Source: a virus
Taxonomy: Duplodnaviria > Heunggongvirae > Uroviricota > Caudoviricetes
Virus record (IMG/VR): IMGVR_UViG_2675903538_000015
Coordinates: 1 to 5,466 of that record
DNA length: 5,466 nucleotides
Strand: one strand, 5' to 3'
The notes below the pieces were generated by a model that ran no database searches, was not told the origin of the DNA, and saw only the letters and a list, made by a program, of their open reading frames with translations. Below, piece by piece: positions 1 through 5,466 of this stretch. Within the stretch, counting starts at the first letter, position 1. Each line of letters opens with the position of its first letter. The position numbers and the translations under genes are program-made.

Positions 1-321
1 GAAGCGTATTGCCAGGACATTCCCGCGCCACTGAAACGCCTTCTTCCTGACTATAAACGGATGGAAGAAAAAATAGACGCCGTAATCCGTGAGAAATACG
101 GGTTACCCCCAGTTATGAGTACACCCGTGAAATATGCCGATCTCATCATGCTGGCAACCGAACGCCGCGATCTCGGGCTTGATGATGGCTCTTTCTGGCC
201 TGTACTGGAAGGTATCCCGGCAACAGAGATGTTCAACGTGATTCCACTGGCTCCGGGCCATGCCTACGGGATGTTTATGGAACGTTTTAACGAGTTATCG
301 GAGTTACGCAAATGCGCATGA
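1..321 (+). CDS. Hypothetical prophage early-region protein, 5'-truncated by the window edge (C-terminal fragment)
   Basis: Frame 1 is open from base 1 with no stop until TGA at 319-321, so the gene starts upstream of the window; the ATG at 61 is probably internal. Stop overlaps the next gene's start region. No confident family assignment from sequence alone. Confidence 0.55.
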   Translation, partial: EAYCQDIPAPLKRLLPDYKRMEEKIDAVIREKYGLPPVMSTPVKYADLIMLATERRDLGLDDGSFWPVLEGIPATEMFNVIPLAPGHAYGMFMERFNELSELRKCA

Positions 322-662
322 ATGTTTTCGAAATGGAAGGGTTTCTTCGCGGGAAATGTGTACCACGAGATCTGAAAGTGAATGAAACAAATGCTGAGTA
401 TCTGGTGCGTAAATTCGATGAAGTACGTGCTGAGGCTCGCAACGAGGGTATTAACTATACCGCAAGCCGTCTTGCTGCGGCTTTCAATCACGGATTTATC
501 AATAAGTCTTTACGTGAAGTTTTCGACGTTACACGCATGATTCTGTCAGCGAAAGAAGAGTTGGCTAATGAACCACACCCGATTGATGGCCTGTCCGGTG
601 AATATGCGGAGAAATCCCTAGAAGAATGGGCGGAACAGCTTCGCAAAGGAGGCAACCAGTGA
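312..662 (+). CDS. Hypothetical phage protein (116 aa), function unknown
   Basis: ORF with ATG at 312 (alternative ATG at 318 forms an ATGA overlap with the upstream stop at 319-321); GGAG at 300-303 upstream. Stop TGA 660-662 overlaps the GTG start of the next gene. Acidic, helical-looking sequence; no recognisable catalytic motif. Confidence 0.6.
   Translation: MRMNVFEMEGFLRGKCVPRDLKVNETNAEYLVRKFDEVRAEARNEGINYTASRLAAAFNHGFINKSLREVFDVTRMILSAKEELANEPHPIDGLSGEYAEKSLEEWAEQLRKGGNQ
645..652 (+). promoter_or_regulatory. Shine-Dalgarno (AAAGGAGG) for the Ea22-like gene
   Basis: Near-consensus SD 6 nt upstream of GTG at 659-661; lies inside the 3' end of the upstream CDS, consistent with translational coupling. 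Confidence 0.6.
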
Positions 663-1357
663 GCGAGATTAACTATCAGGCTCTGCGACTGGCGGCAGAA
701 AATGCAACACCAGGCGAATGGTGTGCTGATGACTACCATGGAGTAATTGCCGATGCCGGACTGAACGCCAATTACTACATAGCATCATGCTCAGGACCGG
801 ATAATCGCTCCAATAAACGATTCATAGCCGCAGCCAATCCGGCTACCGTGCTGGCACTGCTGGATGAGAACGAAAGCATGTGCCGCGACCTCATTGCTCG
901 CAATGGTGAGATTGAAGGGCTTCGAAAACTGGTTGCTGAACTTGAGGAGACAAAATCAAAACTCAACGAGCAGCGTGAATATTACGAAGGTGTTATCTCG
1001 GATGGAAGTAAGCGTATTGCTGAACTGGAGAAAAGCGAAGAGCAACTCATCAGCGAGCGAGATCATGCTGAGTCTGCTTTAGCTGATATGTATTTTGCAG
1101 CAACCGGGGATAGGCCGGAGTGGAGCAACTTGTTCGGCTTTTCAGATGCTGTAGATGCCGTGGTTGACAGAATTGCTGATTTAGAAGCTAAACAGCCATC
1201 GCCAGTAGTACCGGAAGGACTGATTAAAGCGGTGCGTTTTTATGAACAGGTAAAACGTGAGAACCCGCCAGTCGAAACAGGGGCATGGAAAGACGCTGTT
1301 GACTGGGTGCTCAAAGAGGCTTGCCAGGCTGTAAACATTGGCATCAAAGGAGAGTGA
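659..1357 (+). CDS. ead/Ea22-like family prophage protein with central coiled-coil
   Basis: Translation from GTG 659 begins (V/M)SEINYQALRLAAENATPGEW and contains FIAAANPATVLALLDE, a pattern I recognise from lambdoid ead/Ea22-like proteins, followed by a Glu/Leu/Lys-rich heptad-like segment (LRKLVAELEETKSKLNEQREYYEG...ELEKSEEQLISERD). The six-frame track starts at ATG 626 in the same frame, but GTG 659 has the much better SD. Ends TGA 1355-1357. Confidence 0.7.
   Translation: MSEINYQALRLAAENATPGEWCADDYHGVIADAGLNANYYIASCSGPDNRSNKRFIAAANPATVLALLDENESMCRDLIARNGEIEGLRKLVAELEETKSKLNEQREYYEGVISDGSKRIAELEKSEEQLISERDHAESALADMYFAATGDRPEWSNLFGFSDAVDAVVDRIADLEAKQPSPVVPEGLIKAVRFYEQVKRENPPVETGAWKDAVDWVLKEACQAVNIGIKGE
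1341..1357 (+). repeat. 17-bp direct repeat copy 1 (GCATCAAAGGAGAGTGA) at a gene junction
   Basis: Exact 17-mer identical to 1835-1851. It encodes the C-terminal -IKGE* of the Ea22-like protein and contains the SD (AGGAG) for the downstream gene. Confidence 0.85.
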
Positions 1358-1359
1358 GA

Positions 1360-1851
1360 ATGCAAATTTCACCGGTTACTCTTCGTGTTGCGAAGGCGTT
1401 TATATCCAGACATCACCGACACAATAAACCACCTGTTGGGCATAAATTCAGCATTGGTCTGATAAATGATGCCGGAGAATTGATAGGTGTGGCGACAGCT
1501 GGTCGACCTGTTGCACGACATTTGGACGATGGATTAACGCTTGAAGTAAATCGCACATGTACCACAGGAGAACGCAACGCTAACAGCGCGCTTTATGGTG
1601 CTGTCTGGCGGGCAGCAAAGGCTATGGGTTATCAACGTTGTATTACGTACACCCAGGCAGATGAATCAGGAGCATCTCTTCGCGCTGCTGGTTTTGTTCG
1701 TGTGAAAGAGCTTCCTCCAAGAAAAAGCTGGGCGGAATCAAGCGTCGCCCTGCGGAGTAAACGCGATCCGGTCGGAAACGGTGGTATTCCTCGTGTGCTC
1801 TGGGAAATCAGGAGAATGAGTACCACTGGCATTCGCATCAAAGGAGAGTGA
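1360..1851 (+). CDS. Hypothetical protein (163 aa) with GNAT-like acyltransferase-fold features; function unknown
   Basis: ATG at 1360, 7 nt after GGAG at 1349-1352; the track's 1321 start is an in-frame upstream TTG inside the preceding gene. The C-terminal half (NANSALYGAVWRAAKAMGYQRCITYTQADESGASLRAAGFVRV) resembles the GNAT motif A/B region (small-residue loop, then ...LY...GF). The N-terminus carries a basic His-rich patch (ISRHHRHNKPP). Ends -IKGE*, TGA 1849-1851. Confidence 0.65.
   Translation: MQISPVTLRVAKAFISRHHRHNKPPVGHKFSIGLINDAGELIGVATAGRPVARHLDDGLTLEVNRTCTTGERNANSALYGAVWRAAKAMGYQRCITYTQADESGASLRAAGFVRVKELPPRKSWAESSVALRSKRDPVGNGGIPRVLWEIRRMSTTGIRIKGE
1835..1851 (+). repeat. 17-bp direct repeat copy 2 (GCATCAAAGGAGAGTGA) at a gene junction
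   Basis: Exact copy of 1341-1357; again encodes C-terminal -IKGE* and the SD for the following gene (ATG 1853). Confidence 0.85.
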
Positions 1852-1852
1852 T

Positions 1853-2368
1853 ATGGCGTTAACACACCACGAACTCTGTCAGATTGCGTACAAGTTCCTT
1901 AAGCGCAACGGGTTCAAGGTTTGCTTTCATGACCGCTTTGTTGCTGTAACCAGTACCGGAGAACAGCCAGATGCTATGGGATTCAGAAATTCAGCATCAT
2001 GCCTGATAGAGGCGAAGTGTTCTCGTGCTGACTTGTTGGCAGATAGAAAAAAGCGTTTCCGTAAAAATCCCTCACTTGGCATGGGCGACTGGCGATTCTT
2101 TATTAGTGAGCCGGAAATTATTTCAGTTGAGGATTTACCTCCCGGCTGGGGATTACTTCACGTTGTTAACGGAAGAGTACGGAAAGTACATGGATGGCCC
2201 AGGGGTAATTGCTGTTGGGGTAATCCTGACGATAAGCCATTTACCGGGAATAAGCAGGTTGAATGCGATTACATGTTATCTGCATTAAGGCGCATGGAGC
2301 TAAGAGGACACCTTAATGAAATATATGACGGTGTAATTGTTAATAAGAAAGAAGGAAACGCAGCATGA
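1853..2368 (+). CDS. Putative PD-(D/E)xK nuclease-fold protein (171 aa)
   Basis: ATG 1853 is 6 nt after GGAG 1843-1846. The translation contains ...TGEQPDAMGFRNSASCLIEAKCSRADL..., i.e. an acidic residue, then PD, then about 12 residues, then E-A-K. This matches the spacing of the restriction-endonuclease-like PD-(D/E)xK core. Stop TGA 2366-2368 overlaps the next ATG (ATGA). Confidence 0.6.
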   Translation: MALTHHELCQIAYKFLKRNGFKVCFHDRFVAVTSTGEQPDAMGFRNSASCLIEAKCSRADLLADRKKRFRKNPSLGMGDWRFFISEPEIISVEDLPPGWGLLHVVNGRVRKVHGWPRGNCCWGNPDDKPFTGNKQVECDYMLSALRRMELRGHLNEIYDGVIVNKKEGNAA

Positions 2369-3408
2369 CCACTTTAACCGACAAAGAACTGATTAAAGAA
2401 ATCAGAGAGCGAATCGGCAGCCTGGACGTCCGAGACAATATTGAGCGTCGGGCTTATGAAATTGCTCTGGAATCGCTGGAAGCAGAACCAGTTGCTTATA
2501 TTTTCAAACATCCGGCCGGGAAATTATTCTGGGCTTTAACGGATGAAAGCAATAAAGAGCAACCGGACGTTATTCCTGTTTATGCTGACTCACCTGCGCC
2601 GGTTGTGCCGGATGAAATAGACGTAAACGATGTACCAAGGGCGGTGACATATTTCAAGACACACAGAGATTGTTACGCAGATGGCTGGAACGCCTGCCGC
2701 GCCGCCATGCTTCAGTCCGGAAACTTTCGGGAAAACAAGAATTCGTCAACCAATAATTTTCGGGAAATCGCGGAAACGTCAACCAACTATCCGGTAATTC
2801 CTAGTGAGGTGTTGTCCGCAATCCGGGAGGTTGCCAAGATTCGTGCCGATTTCGATGATTTTGACGGTGACAGGCGAGGTATCGGTGATTGTCTGGATGA
2901 GGCCGAGCAAGAGCTTATCGTTACCATTAACAAATATGCCAGTCAGTTGGCAGCAGAACCGATAGCGACTAATGACGTTCGAGAGCAGCAGACAGCCGTT
3001 CCGCCAGTTCCGGAAATACAGGATGATGTCGCGCAAGCAATTGAAAATCTCAAGCAGAAGTTAGTGGAATGCAATCGCTATAACTACTGCGCAGATGCAG
3101 TTAAAGGCGTAGAGGATGCCTGCCACGCTGCCATGCTTCAGGGTAGCCAACCTGTAAGCCAAACTTACAAGTTGCCAGTTAATACACCTTGCCAAGATGC
3201 GCCAGCCCATATCTGGCTGCAAACGGCTGGAGTATGGCCAGAAGATGGCGAGTTAAGTGAATTAACGTGGTGCAGCCACAATCAGCACCATGATGACACG
3301 CTATATGTTCGAGCTGACCTTGTGAATGGCAACTCTCCGGTAACTCCGGATAGTTGGATAAGCTGTAGTGATCGAATGCCGGACGACAGGCAGGAGGTGA
3401 ATCAATGA
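2365..3408 (+). CDS. Hypothetical prophage protein (347 aa) with an internal duplicated Cys-containing motif
   Basis: ATG 2365 follows GAAGGA at 2350-2355. Two copies of a related segment occur: CYADGWNACRAAMLQ and YCADAVKGVEDACHAAMLQ, with a 22/24 nt match at 2692-2715 versus 3118-3141. A low-complexity NFRENKNSSTNNFRE linker lies around 2724-2780. The C-terminus ends ...PDSWISCSDRMPDDRQEVNQ*. Stop TGA 3406-3408. Confidence 0.7.
   Translation: MTTLTDKELIKEIRERIGSLDVRDNIERRAYEIALESLEAEPVAYIFKHPAGKLFWALTDESNKEQPDVIPVYADSPAPVVPDEIDVNDVPRAVTYFKTHRDCYADGWNACRAAMLQSGNFRENKNSSTNNFREIAETSTNYPVIPSEVLSAIREVAKIRADFDDFDGDRRGIGDCLDEAEQELIVTINKYASQLAAEPIATNDVREQQTAVPPVPEIQDDVAQAIENLKQKLVECNRYNYCADAVKGVEDACHAAMLQGSQPVSQTYKLPVNTPCQDAPAHIWLQTAGVWPEDGELSELTWCSHNQHHDDTLYVRADLVNGNSPVTPDSWISCSDRMPDDRQEVNQ
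3392..3397 (+). promoter_or_regulatory. Shine-Dalgarno (AGGAGG) for the small hydrophobic ORF
   Basis: Consensus SD 7 nt upstream of ATG 3405; embedded in the 3' end of the upstream CDS. Confidence 0.5.
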
Positions 3409-3488
3409 GCTGGCCTGATGCAATCGTAACTCTGGGGGTGGTATTCGCAGCAGCGTTTGTTGTGTTCTCGATTTGTCGATGGGGATAA
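3405..3488 (+). CDS. Small hydrophobic peptide (27 aa, MSWPDAIVTLGVVFAAAFVVFSICRWG), predicted single transmembrane helix
   Basis: Not in the ORF track because it is too short. ATG 3405 overlaps the upstream stop (ATGA) and is preceded by a perfect AGGAGG; TAA 3486-3488 lies 4 nt before the next gene's ATG. Core of about 18 uninterrupted hydrophobic residues flanked by D and R/W. Confidence 0.45.
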   Translation: MSWPDAIVTLGVVFAAAFVVFSICRWG

Positions 3489-3492
3489 CCAC

Positions 3493-3735
3493 ATGTTCGC
3501 TTTGATTCAACGCGGTCAGATATACACGGACAGAGCTGGATACCCCGTGGTGATTACTCGCATCACTGAGCACTCAGTGTTCTTTCGACGGATGGACGGA
3601 CGCTCCGGGCGGGTACGCATTGGTGAGTTAAACTGCCTGTTCGAACATATTGACCACCAGGAGTACCGCAAAATTCTCGCGGACACTGAGCAGGAAAAGC
3701 ACCTGAAAAAATTACGAGCCATAAAAAGGAAGTAA
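3493..3735 (+). CDS. Small hypothetical phage protein (80 aa), basic C-terminus
   Basis: Probable start at ATG 3493 (the track's 3457 start is an in-frame TTG upstream). Sequence MFALIQRGQIYTDRAGYPVVITRITEHSVFFRRMDGRSGRVRIGELNCLFEH... resembles small beta-rich prophage proteins found near integrases, possibly a DUF4222-like family; this is recalled, not verified. Ends TAA 3733-3735. Confidence 0.55.
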   Translation: MFALIQRGQIYTDRAGYPVVITRITEHSVFFRRMDGRSGRVRIGELNCLFEHIDHQEYRKILADTEQEKHLKKLRAIKRK

Positions 3736-3738
3736 AGA

Positions 3739-3828
3739 ATGAATAAAGCATTTGAACGATGGGTCCACCAGCGTTACGGCAATCGCTATGACCTGACGCG
3801 AGATGTTGACGGCTTCTACTGTCGTTAA
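3739..3828 (+). CDS. Possible small ORF (29 aa, MNKAFERWVHQRYGNRYDLTRDVDGFYCR), or the 5' part of a disrupted small gene
   Basis: ATG 3739 is 6 nt after AGGAAG (3727-3732). The frame stops at TAA 3826-3828, but the same frame continues for 14 more codons (VVKRMFEVWCHCRG) to TGA 3871-3873. Very short; coding status uncertain. Confidence 0.2.
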   Translation: MNKAFERWVHQRYGNRYDLTRDVDGFYCR

Positions 3829-3891
3829 GTTGTGAAGCGAATGTTTGAAGTGTGGTGCCACTGCCGTGGATGAAAATTTTATGAGGTTGGC

Positions 3892-4146
3892 ATGCAGACA
3901 ATCATCTATCAGATAACCCCCAGCAAATGGTGTACGGAGAGAGTCCTCATTGCATCAACAGGGCTAAAGCCTGGCACCATTGAGCGGGCAAGAAGAAAGT
4001 CATGGATGCAGGGAAAAGAATACCGCCATTACGCTGTAGAAGGTGATCCGGGGCACTACAGTGAATGCCTGTACAACATCGAAGAAATTATGCGATGGAT
4101 CGAAAACCAGAAACAACCAGGTGCCAAAAATGCAAGTTCCGGTTAA
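3892..4146 (+). CDS. xis: Putative excisionase / Xis-like DNA-binding protein (84 aa)
   Basis: Sits immediately upstream of the integrase in the same orientation. Small protein with Trp/Arg/Lys/Tyr-rich pattern (...SKWCTERVLIASTGLKPGTIERARRKSWMQGKEYRHYAVEG...YNIEEIMRWIEN) typical of winged-helix excisionase-like proteins. GAGG at 3884-3887 upstream of the ATG; TAA 4144-4146. Confidence 0.6.
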   Translation: MQTIIYQITPSKWCTERVLIASTGLKPGTIERARRKSWMQGKEYRHYAVEGDPGHYSECLYNIEEIMRWIENQKQPGAKNASSG

Positions 4147-4179
4147 CCTGTTAATGCTCCTGGACGTCTGGGAGGTTTA

Positions 4180-5466
4180 ATGAGTAACGCATCATACCCG
4201 ACAGGCGTTGAAAACCATGGCGGATCACTCCGCATATGGTTTCACTATAACGGCAAACGTGTCAGAGAAAACCTCGGTGTTCCTGACACCGCCAAAAACC
4301 GGAAGATCGCAGGTGAACTTCGCACTTCCGTTTGTTTTGCAATCAGAATGGGGAGTTTCGACTACGCCGCGCAGTTCCCTAATTCCCCTAACCTGAAACA
4401 CTTTGGCTTGGGGAAAAGAGAGATAACAGTTAAGGCACTTTCGGAAAAATGGCTGGACCTTAAGAAAATAGAGATAGGAAGCAATGCATTCAGTCGGTAT
4501 CAATCCGTAGTGAGAAACATGCTTCCTCGCATAGGGGAAAAACGTCTTGCTTCGTCTGTAACAAAGGAAGATTTACAGTTTATCAGGAAAGATTTGTTAA
4601 CCGGGTATCATAATCTCTCTAATGGAAAAACAACGCCGGTTAAAGGGAGATCGGTAGTTACGGTTAATTACTACATGACGACAATTGCAGGAATGTTTCA
4701 ATTTGCTGCTGATAACGGCTATATCGGGTCAAACCCATTTAACGGGCTGACACCATTAAAGAGATCAAGAACAGAGCCAGATCCGCTCACGCGTGACGAA
4801 TTTATTCGCTTTATTGATGCCTGTCACCATCAACAAACGAAAAACCTGTGGTCCTTAGCAGTATACACAGGCATTCGTCACGGTGAGCTAATAGCTCTCG
4901 CCTGGGAGGATATTGATTTAAAAGCTAAAACAATGACTATCCGTCGTAATTATACAAAACTAGGGGAGTTCACTCTACCAAAAACAGAGGCGGGAACTGA
5001 TCGTGTTATTCATCTTGTTCAACCAGCTGTTGATGCCCTGAAAAGCCAGGCTGAAATGACAAGGTTTGACCAGCAATATCAAATTGATGTCAAACTGCGG
5101 GAGTTCGGACGCAGCACAAGCCATGAATGCACGTTTGTTTTTAATCCGCAACTGGTGAAAAAATGCCAGCACGTCGGCCACCACTATAAAGCAGATTCCA
5201 TCAGAGATTCCTGGGCATCTGCATTAAGGCGAGCAGGACTGCGGCACAGAAAAGCCTATCAGTCTAGGCATACTTATGCCTGCTGGGCATTATCGGCAGG
5301 AGCGAATCCAAGCTTCATAGCAAACCAAATGGGCCATGCAAATGCACAAATGGTATTCAACGTTTACGGCGCATGGATGGAAGATAACAATATCGGGCAA
5401 ATAGAACTACTCAATAAGCAGTTGACAGAGAGTGTCCCATACATGCCCCATAGAGCCAGACTCTGA
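4180..5466 (+). CDS. int: Phage-type tyrosine site-specific integrase (428 aa), complete
   Basis: GGAGG at 4171-4175 upstream of ATG 4180. Box I-like GIRHGELIALAWEDIDL; box II-like AYQSRHTYACWALSAGANPSFIANQMGHANAQMVFNVYGAW, with the predicted nucleophilic Tyr at codon 5365-5367 (TAC). Stop TGA 5464-5466 is the end of the window. Confidence 0.9.
   Translation: MSNASYPTGVENHGGSLRIWFHYNGKRVRENLGVPDTAKNRKIAGELRTSVCFAIRMGSFDYAAQFPNSPNLKHFGLGKREITVKALSEKWLDLKKIEIGSNAFSRYQSVVRNMLPRIGEKRLASSVTKEDLQFIRKDLLTGYHNLSNGKTTPVKGRSVVTVNYYMTTIAGMFQFAADNGYIGSNPFNGLTPLKRSRTEPDPLTRDEFIRFIDACHHQQTKNLWSLAVYTGIRHGELIALAWEDIDLKAKTMTIRRNYTKLGEFTLPKTEAGTDRVIHLVQPAVDALKSQAEMTRFDQQYQIDVKLREFGRSTSHECTFVFNPQLVKKCQHVGHHYKADSIRDSWASALRRAGLRHRKAYQSRHTYACWALSAGANPSFIANQMGHANAQMVFNVYGAWMEDNNIGQIELLNKQLTESVPYMPHRARL

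Follow-up and report, generated by a model that had tools for sequence, protein, structure and literature searches.

A widespread 27-codon gene in the exo-xis segment of lambdoid prophages is predicted to encode a single-pass membrane peptide

The subject of this study is a 27-codon open reading frame (ORF) at positions 3405-3488 of a 5,466-nucleotide stretch of viral DNA (Caudoviricetes; IMG/VR record IMGVR_UViG_2675903538_000015, positions 1 to 5,466), the whole of which is referred to here as the window. A preliminary description, made from the letters of the window, had read this ORF as an unannotated small gene for a hydrophobic peptide, translationally coupled on both sides and situated among the early genes of a phage. 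The window corresponds to a lambdoid prophage's early-left (exo-xis) end, and the ORF indeed lies in the exo-xis segment, just upstream of xis and int.

Results

The gene and its translation signals

The following features make up the gene, as read directly from the sequence, together with the helix predicted for its product.

3390..3404, + strand: module leader, holding the Shine-Dalgarno sequence AGGAGG (3392-3397) and a 7-nt spacer to the ATG
3405..3488, + strand: 27-codon gene, 84 nt, product MSWPDAIVTLGVVFAAAFVVFSICRWG, TAA stop at 3486-3488
3405..3408, + strand: ATGA start/stop overlap and putative translational-coupling site (peptide ATG 3405-3407, upstream TGA 3406-3408)
3420..3476, + strand: predicted transmembrane helix, residues 6-24, AIVTLGVVFAAAFVVFSIC

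The leader doubles as the final five codons (Q-E-V-N-Q) of the upstream gene, and the downstream ATG, that of a DUF4222 gene at 3493, lies 4 nt past the peptide stop. The ORF, its AGGAGG with 7-nt spacing, the ATGA overlap and the 4-nt downstream gap were thus as the preliminary description had reported them. The arrangement AGGAGG-N5-9-ATG occurs once in the window when both strands are scanned; shuffled windows contained a mean of 0.21 matches, and the Shine-Dalgarno motif by itself is below significance. Because at least one match was present in 19% of shuffles, and because the window holds 99 ORFs of at least 20 aa, so that a length of 27 aa is ordinary, these local features alone prove nothing; it is the comparative evidence given below that lifts the ORF above chance.

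The RNA of 3380-3500 was less stably folded than its shuffles (z=+1.64), the window had no Rfam match at E≤1, and there was no terminator at the peptide ORF. Inspection of the sequence ahead of the upstream stop found no slippery heptamer. A promoter scan found no promoter-like site within 2900-4300, and the peptide ORF would therefore be read within the long leftward early transcript.

Conservation is confined to the ribosome-binding site and the 27 codons

In a blastn search with window 3385-3495 as query against 5426 complete E. coli genomes, alignments to diverged copies spanned query positions 6 to 104/105, that is from the Shine-Dalgarno sequence (window 3390) to the stop codon (3488/9). 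The boundaries were also measured in 103 distinct 264-nt contexts, anchored on the start codon, as mean pairwise identity. This was about 0.35 in the flanks, 0.58-0.86 at -18 to -7 (the Shine-Dalgarno region) and 0.7-1.0 in the ORF, and it fell to 0.40 at the first base past the stop. Since identity rises at the Shine-Dalgarno sequence and drops after the stop, the conserved unit, judged from these alignments, is the ribosome-binding site plus 27 codons.

Substitutions were analysed in codons 7-23, which were unconstrained by any search pattern. Entropy at codon positions 1, 2 and 3 was 0.39, 0.28 and 0.75, about twice as high at the third position as at the other two, and the ratio of non-synonymous to synonymous substitution (dN/dS; Nei-Gojobori, NG86) was 0.37 in the ORF frame, the values for four of the other frames being 1.0, 1.5, 1.2 and 2.1. 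When changes were counted as states minus one per column, which gives a lower bound, codon positions 1, 2 and 3 had 20, 16 and 31 (binomial p=0.02). Of the 84 nt, 26 differ between the window copy and the commonest variant, and third positions account for 14 of these. Amino-acid replacements in the family exchange hydrophobic for hydrophobic residues. A comparison of synonymous with non-synonymous changes had been named in the preliminary description as a check, and it came out as expected of a gene. With conservation bounded by the ORF, a fixed length of 27 codons, three-base periodicity and dN/dS below 1, we consider it very likely that 3405-3488 is a real, translated gene and not, as the same description had been at pains to distinguish, a chance ORF.

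The reading frame is intact in nearly all copies

The initial pattern scan had fixed both ends of the ORF, and the census was redone with anchors free of this constraint, as follows; the first three samples were not selected on the ORF body.

Upstream 18-mer, CAGGAGGTGAATCAATGA: 119/120 intact at 27 codons; exception, one W3stop
DUF4222 protein: 79/80 intact; exception, an extra G in the G5 run
blastn, all fetched loci: 192/195 intact; exceptions, an in-frame -6 nt, one stop-loss (40 aa) and one nonsense
C-terminal motif: 19 new loci, among them variants with W3R, P4S/T or a GTG start, two in-frame forms of 25 aa and three decayed copies

The three decayed copies found with the C-terminal anchor comprised one W3stop and two with a 1-nt deletion. 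Overall, approximately 97-99% of copies were intact, and indels that preserved the peptide were multiples of three; a 6-nt deletion giving 25 aa was seen twice independently, and the W3R and P4S/T variants recurred. Frameshifts or stops in relatives had been proposed as the outcome that would speak against a gene, and these were limited to 3-5 decayed copies.

The gene is widespread and moves as an independent module

The same blastn search gave 1350 places in 1008 of the 5426 genomes (about 19%), 150 of these places being on plasmids, and a genome often carried several copies. Searching with the peptide by tblastn gave 93 phage records, including 933W, VT2-Sakai, BP-4795 and the lytic phage Av-05, and 181 plasmid records (155 from Escherichia, 25 from Salmonella and 1 from Klebsiella), most of which were non-mobilisable and about 95-100 kb in size. 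These plasmids look like P1-type phage-plasmids; in the only one inspected, a gene for DNA polymerase III theta (hot-like) lies close by. A scan of 185,579 GTDB species representatives with a variable-gap pattern, which returned mostly chance matches in GC-rich genomes, found no true copies outside E. coli, Shigella flexneri and an Escherichia sp., apart from matches on two very short contigs assigned to Xanthomonas pisi (L201, 431 bp) and Acinetobacter idrijaensis (L223, 369 bp). Both contigs hold exact versions of the E. coli phage module and are most likely contamination. The CPS-53 prophage of K-12, in which yfdS is a DUF551 gene, has no copy of the peptide gene.

Full-length 27-aa relatives were present in 933W, the lytic Vequintavirinae phage Av-05, ArgO145 and 'Actinobacillus' phage pPE4. 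These are 52-63% identical to the window peptide and 81-100% identical to the consensus variant of the family; in 4/4 the start overlaps the upstream stop as ATGA, their flanking genes differ, and the ORF is annotated in 0/4. The last of these (L007, PP818812.1, 'Actinobacillus phage vB_Apl-pPE4', 1440-1950) is nearly identical in DNA to ArgO145 over about 140 nt, covering the upstream gene end and the peptide gene, while directly past the peptide stop its sequence matches 933W and a Hok-family gene is annotated downstream. It was deposited as infecting Actinobacillus pleuropneumoniae, and its host assignment or source purity is possibly questionable.

Across the family, at least 4 kinds of upstream gene and at least 10 downstream contexts were found, with the start/stop overlap (ATGA or GTGA) constant. 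The upstream genes include a full DUF551 gene (ending ...PLPEPPQEVNQ), the truncated form seen in the window, a gene ending ...ISVEDILR, a 933W-type protein and a gene ending ...HEEGDK. An NTGA overlap is found at three unrelated junctions (...PQEVNQ, ...ISVEDILR and ...HEEGDK, the last with a GTGA start), and every junction class has a Shine-Dalgarno sequence and a start codon of its own. Downstream, DUF4222 follows at +4 in 59/182 family copies and mok/hok at about +153 in approximately 56/182; others precede a 77-aa gene at +2 or terminator-like hairpins. Of the arrangement read as coupling on both sides, the upstream overlap is kept in every junction type seen and the downstream 4-nt gap in only about one third of copies, those with DUF4222. 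The peptide gene is not tied to one neighbour and, to judge from these junctions, is placed so that ribosomes ending the upstream gene could restart on it.

When L254 and L263 are compared with L236, the DUF4222 genes share at least 99% identity, yet the peptide clades in front of them share only 59% and have different upstream junctions, which places a recombination breakpoint at the stop codon of the peptide or just beyond it. The family copies whose end lies about 150 nt upstream of a type I toxin-antitoxin locus, mok/hok/sok (approximately 30%), include 933W (L004, 1501-1950), L007, L009, L020 and others. In ArgO145 the peptide gene is followed by a convergent type II-like toxin/antitoxin pair.

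The product is a predicted single-pass membrane peptide

Hydrophobicity over 19-residue stretches of the peptide peaks at residues 6-24, where the Kyte-Doolittle mean, on what is a crude scale, is 2.63; the other variants reach 2.0-2.1. A crude Hessa-scale sum of -1.85 kcal/mol was obtained for the window peptide. A single hydrophobic helix had been anticipated from the first reading of the sequence, and on these values the product is probably a membrane-inserted single helix. The conserved ends are M-S/T-W-P-D/E-A at the N-terminus and Y/F-S-I-C-R-W-G at the C-terminus, and near-invariant residues are G11, A15, A17, S22, I23, C24, R25 and W26. In samples not selected on the C-terminal end, C24 was unchanged throughout, and R25 and W26 were altered in 3/120 copies only. 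Small residues form two stripes approximately 150 degrees apart on the helix (G11-A15-L18-S22 and A6-A13-A17-V20-C24), with variable positions between them. Because the N-terminal end is acidic and Arg25 lies near the C-terminal end, the positive-inside rule would place the N-terminus outside and the C-terminus inside. On inspection a lipoprotein signal peptide was rejected because of the acidic N-terminus and because Y-S-I-C does not qualify as a lipobox.

Neighbouring genes in the prophage

The order of genes in the window is Ea22-like, XF1762-family, 171-aa gene, mosaic Ea22/DUF551, the small peptide ORF, DUF4222, 29-aa remnant, xis and integrase. The window is 99.9% identical to E. coli ARS-C301 (NZ_CP132983).

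1321-1851: XF1762-family gene, matching the Mom family (PF25680) below threshold (E=4e-5)
1853-2368: 171-aa ORF, without Pfam or PADLOC match
2365..3408, + strand: mosaic Ea22/EaA-type gene, 347 aa, whose stop overlaps the peptide start
3493..3735, + strand: DUF4222 gene, 80 aa (Pfam E=8e-14), starting 4 nt after the peptide stop
3739-3828: 29-aa ORF, 4 nt past the DUF4222 stop, matching phrog_3871 over the first 29/48 positions (E=1.5e-18)
3892-4146: xis
4180-5466: integrase

The 347-aa upstream ORF carries the motif GWNACRAAMLQ twice (Ea22/EaA-type repeats), and its Pfam DUF551 match is confined to residues 330-345, which correspond to profile positions 1-16 of 68. DUF551 is therefore internally deleted in it, positions 1-16 being followed by the usual QEVNQ tail; full-length DUF551 proteins terminate ...HWMPLPEPPQEVNQ. 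In NZ_CP132983, PGAP calls three pseudogene fragments in sequence identical to this ORF, though the frame is fully open. The 171-aa ORF is intact here and in phage PhiR5_1 and is called 'frameshifted' in a near-identical RefSeq record. Downstream, GGGGA at 3481-3485, inside the final codons of the peptide and 7 nt before the DUF4222 ATG, may be the candidate ribosome-binding site of DUF4222. The 29-aa ORF has a length of 44 aa in BP-4795 (ORF3); the annotation here treats it as a pseudogene truncated at the C-terminus. Apparently this is another small exo-xis gene, shortened in this prophage.

The family is largely absent from annotation

At this locus the gene is unannotated, as had been claimed: the 85 nt or so that separate the DUF551-type gene from DUF4222 are left blank in NZ_CP132983, BP-4795 and PhiR5_1. 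The claim does not extend to the family, whose members are sporadically annotated. Exact 27-aa relatives are found in GenBank as 'putative prophage protein [E. coli 042]', 'bacteriophage protein' and 'hypothetical protein FORC28_2400', amounting to a few dozen deposits, and N-terminally extended calls of 45 aa (in RefSeq, e.g. WP_423274943.1) and 52 aa have also been made. By exact look-up in a collection of 15 billion proteins, the window variant was absent, and four common variants and one 40-aa stop-loss form were present. Prodigal has a minimum gene length of 90 nt, which excludes an ORF of 84 nt. The ribosome-profiling study of Sakai likewise applied a cut-off of ≥30 aa, in line with the expectation that such genes are routinely missed.

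The peptide had no significant match in Pfam, NCBIfam, PADLOC or the PDB. Against PHROGs only weak, non-significant matches were obtained, and phrog_4612 (E 0.004-0.05 even with N-extended forms) was judged unrelated. Strings of the peptide were absent from the paper full texts searched and from the supplements of the Sakai ribosome-profiling (RIBOseq) paper and an Enterobacteriaceae microproteome preprint; the exo-xis and Ea22 papers that were checked mention no 27-aa hydrophobic ORF. The family is uncharacterised and essentially undescribed, and its kind, a phage-borne small membrane protein, is familiar.

The peptide is not part of the DUF551 (PF04448) frame, as it is read in a different frame, DUF551 proteins end QEVNQ before it, and non-DUF551 genes also stand upstream. 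The clustering of 27-aa proteins with DUF551 proteins of 121 and 185 aa, which might be taken for a fusion, is an artefact of partial or extended calls. In Stx2 phage II (L235, AP005154) a 249-aa antisense 'ORF C38' is annotated on the minus strand at 301-1050; it covers the peptide gene together with the last part of the Ea22-type gene and the first part of the hok locus. The substitution pattern gives no support to a gene on the minus strand, and the record is probably over-annotated here.

Discussion

A proposed model of coupled translation and helix packing

We propose, with moderate confidence, that 3405-3488 encodes a 27-residue single-pass inner-membrane peptide of the early-left operon, made by coupled translation and working by contact between its helix and that of a membrane partner. 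The gene would be transcribed as an internal or distal member of the early-left (exo-xis) operon towards xis and int, without a promoter of its own, and the peptide would be made on infection or prophage induction. Its translation would follow from termination-reinitiation at the ATGA overlap or from direct initiation at the strong AGGAGG. On insertion, the short acidic N-terminus (M-S/T-W-P-D/E) would probably be periplasmic and the C-R-W-G end would lie at the cytoplasmic face, and the small-residue stripes (G11xxxA15..S22 and A6/A13/A17/C24) would pack against another transmembrane helix. A membrane protein of the host or of the phage could serve as the partner, as could other copies of the same peptide, and the role might be one in exclusion, in the timing of development or in modulating a transporter or sensor.

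Binding between helices is the mode of action of known small membrane proteins of bacteria. Because there are two packing faces, we prefer, with modest confidence, association between helices to non-specific damage of the membrane, and the peptide could plausibly, if not probably, act through specific helix packing with a partner.

Several observations weigh against this model. The antisense frame that shares wobble positions with the ORF has a dN/dS of 0.27 and is open in 96% of sequences; it was nevertheless rejected as a gene because 22/52 sequences have no start codon for it within the module and it would begin in the non-conserved flank. The copies compared are phylogenetically related, so that counts overstate independent events, and the conservative test reached only p ~0.02. 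Translation data bear little on the gene, since the Sakai study took in ORFs of ≥30 aa only and K-12 ribosome profiling is uninformative at least for CPS-53, which lacks a copy. Decay does occur, as W3stop in L130 and L318 (two independent events), as a 1-nt deletion in codon 2 in L324/L329 and as +1 G in L303, where the extra G in the G5 run (1412-1417) is possibly a sequencing error. Because the ATG is followed by an A-initial Ser/Thr codon, the ORF itself already supplies the TGA of the overlap, and only about three junctions are independent. Crude Hessa sums for the commoner variants were +0.2 to +1.6 kcal/mol, which makes insertion plausible, not certain, and both topology and partner binding are read from the sequence pattern alone.

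Alternative explanations

The main rival, which goes back to the preliminary description, holds that the product is a membrane-damaging or host-killing peptide, whose pores or disturbance of the bilayer would cause depolarisation, a block of division or a change in lysis timing. Type I toxins are of similar size (DinQ, 27 aa; ShoB, 26 aa; TisB, 29 aa), and the peptide shares with them its length and a very hydrophobic single helix, in which small residues on two faces could allow self-association. Like Hok/Gef (hokW of 933W), it is a small hydrophobic membrane peptide of the same prophage regions, and about 30% of its copies lie some 150 nt upstream of mok/hok/sok. We nevertheless judge a toxin or pore unlikely, and the roles first suggested for the peptide (host killing, inhibition of division, depolarisation, superinfection exclusion) find no specific support here. 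Unlike Hok/Gef, the peptide has no Hok Pfam match, and Pfam, NCBIfam and PADLOC gave no toxin, holin or defence family; approximately 70% of its copies are without hok. No antisense RNA or Rfam match covers the ORF, and in 933W (L004) the sok RNA (1626-1800) is a separate element, starting 44 nt past the peptide stop at 1581. There is no folded silent mRNA of the Hok type, the region being less structured than shuffles, and whereas type I toxins are typically under tight translational repression, this gene has an accessible perfect Shine-Dalgarno sequence, operon coupling and a place where it would be co-translated constitutively. A holin or pinholin finds no better footing: the weak PHROG holin match (E=0.07 for the N-extended 45-aa form, 0.07-0.1 in all) was seen only for the artificially extended form, and the position of the gene, in the early region with the Ea22/DUF551 gene on one side and xis-int on the other, is outside the lysis cassette and away from endolysin and spanin genes. 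Only a single charged residue flanks the helix at each end, and carriage in about 19% of E. coli genomes, often in multiple copies, comes without an obvious antidote.

It is also conceivable, and in our view improbable, that the ORF is translated and its peptide functionless, serving to keep ribosomes on the distal transcript (against Rho-dependent polarity, or to hand them on) or as a 'linker' for DNA recombination. The tight upstream overlap, the downstream gap of 2-4 nt in many contexts and the position of the module exactly at mosaic junctions (DUF4222 at ≥99% beside peptide clades at 59%) would suit such a role. Against it stand the constraint on amino acids (dN/dS 0.37, with near-invariant residues also in unselected samples) and the length fixed at 27 codons. 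Many copies precede terminator-like hairpins or a gene 150 nt off, with nothing to couple, and a pure DNA linker would not give third-position periodicity.

Still less probable, to the point of being a distant prospect, is that 3405-3488 is not a gene at all and that a chance ORF has been caught in a conserved non-coding segment (an RNA element or protein-binding site) or an antisense-coding one, such as the 90-aa minus ORF at 3301-3573. The number of ORFs in the window, the frequency of the motif in shuffles, the one open antisense frame of low dN/dS and the long antisense ORF of the Stx2 phage II record could all be cited for this. Conservation, however, runs from the Shine-Dalgarno sequence to the stop codon, Rfam is empty and the fold is weaker than that of shuffles; the two listed minus-strand ORF frames have dN/dS of 1.2-2.1, the antisense frame of low dN/dS is startless in 22/52, and frameshifting indels are absent from >190 copies save 3-4 evidently decayed ones.

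Finally, it is scarcely credible that the segment is a C-terminal membrane anchor of the upstream DUF551/Ea22-type protein, joined by a programmed frameshift near ATGA, for although the peptide frame is open for some codons upstream, extended forms of 45 and 52 aa are annotated and 27-aa proteins share 90%-identity clusters with DUF551 proteins, the clustered DUF551 proteins end ...PQEVNQ without the peptide and are linked to it through partial or extended calls of its frame, no slippery heptamer precedes the stop, and the gene has unrelated upstream genes and its own start and Shine-Dalgarno sequence in all junction classes.

Relation to known small membrane proteins and phage systems

The model of a helix-packing inner-membrane peptide has its closest parallels in the enterobacterial single-pass small membrane proteins that bind larger ones, such as KdpF, AcrZ, MgtS, CydX, PmrR and MgrB. 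The peptide resembles these in its class (25-50 aa, one helix, short polar ends and small-residue packing motifs), and members of this group are often internal to operons with tight coupling and routinely missed by annotation. It differs in being phage-borne and mobile with variable neighbours, where those are chromosomal and linked to a partner gene, and no sequence relationship was found; against the KdpF model (TIGR02115) the consensus variant scored 14.7 bits vs a cut-off of 26.85, and the window variant gave no match.

Phages also encode membrane proteins for exclusion or the blocking of injection, including T4 Imm, HK97 gp15, lambda SieB and P22 SieA. Like them, the peptide is a phage-encoded, presumptive inner-membrane protein outside the structural and lysis modules. 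Unlike it, they are 60-190 aa long, several are expressed from the prophage, and they are unrelated in sequence; expression of the peptide in the lysogen is doubtful because no promoter is evident. With the exo-xis genes of lambda and Shiga toxin (Stx) phages (orf60a, orf61, orf63, orf73, ea22 and ea8.5) it shares the region and the early-left transcript, although the products of those genes are soluble.

Implications

The gene is well supported and widespread and has a bearing on Stx phages, and its kind is unsurprising. The omission is considerable in scale: some 19% of complete E. coli genomes, as well as 933W and VT2-Sakai, have the gene, yet it lies outside RefSeq annotation, Pfam, NCBIfam and PADLOC. 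Because it falls under the usual length cut-offs, a Shine-Dalgarno sequence with 27 codons overlapping an upstream stop is a clean test case for small-gene finders.

The gene sits in the exo-xis region, which affects the lysis-lysogeny decision (PMC3824215, PMC7093339, PMC8614690) and is known to influence lysogenisation and prophage induction. Should its target prove to be a host membrane protein, the peptide would represent a new phage-host interaction and offer a compact 27-aa probe of that protein. More speculatively, and only as a tentative suggestion, lambdoid phages (Stx phages among them), P1-type phage-plasmids and certain lytic coliphages might share an undescribed, mobile family of 27-residue transmembrane microproteins that bind a specific host inner-membrane protein, for example a DNA-entry transporter, a sensor kinase or a protease, and thereby alter superinfection, the lysis-lysogeny decision or the induction of Stx prophages. 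If this were true, the peptide would be a missing component behind unexplained exo-xis phenotypes.

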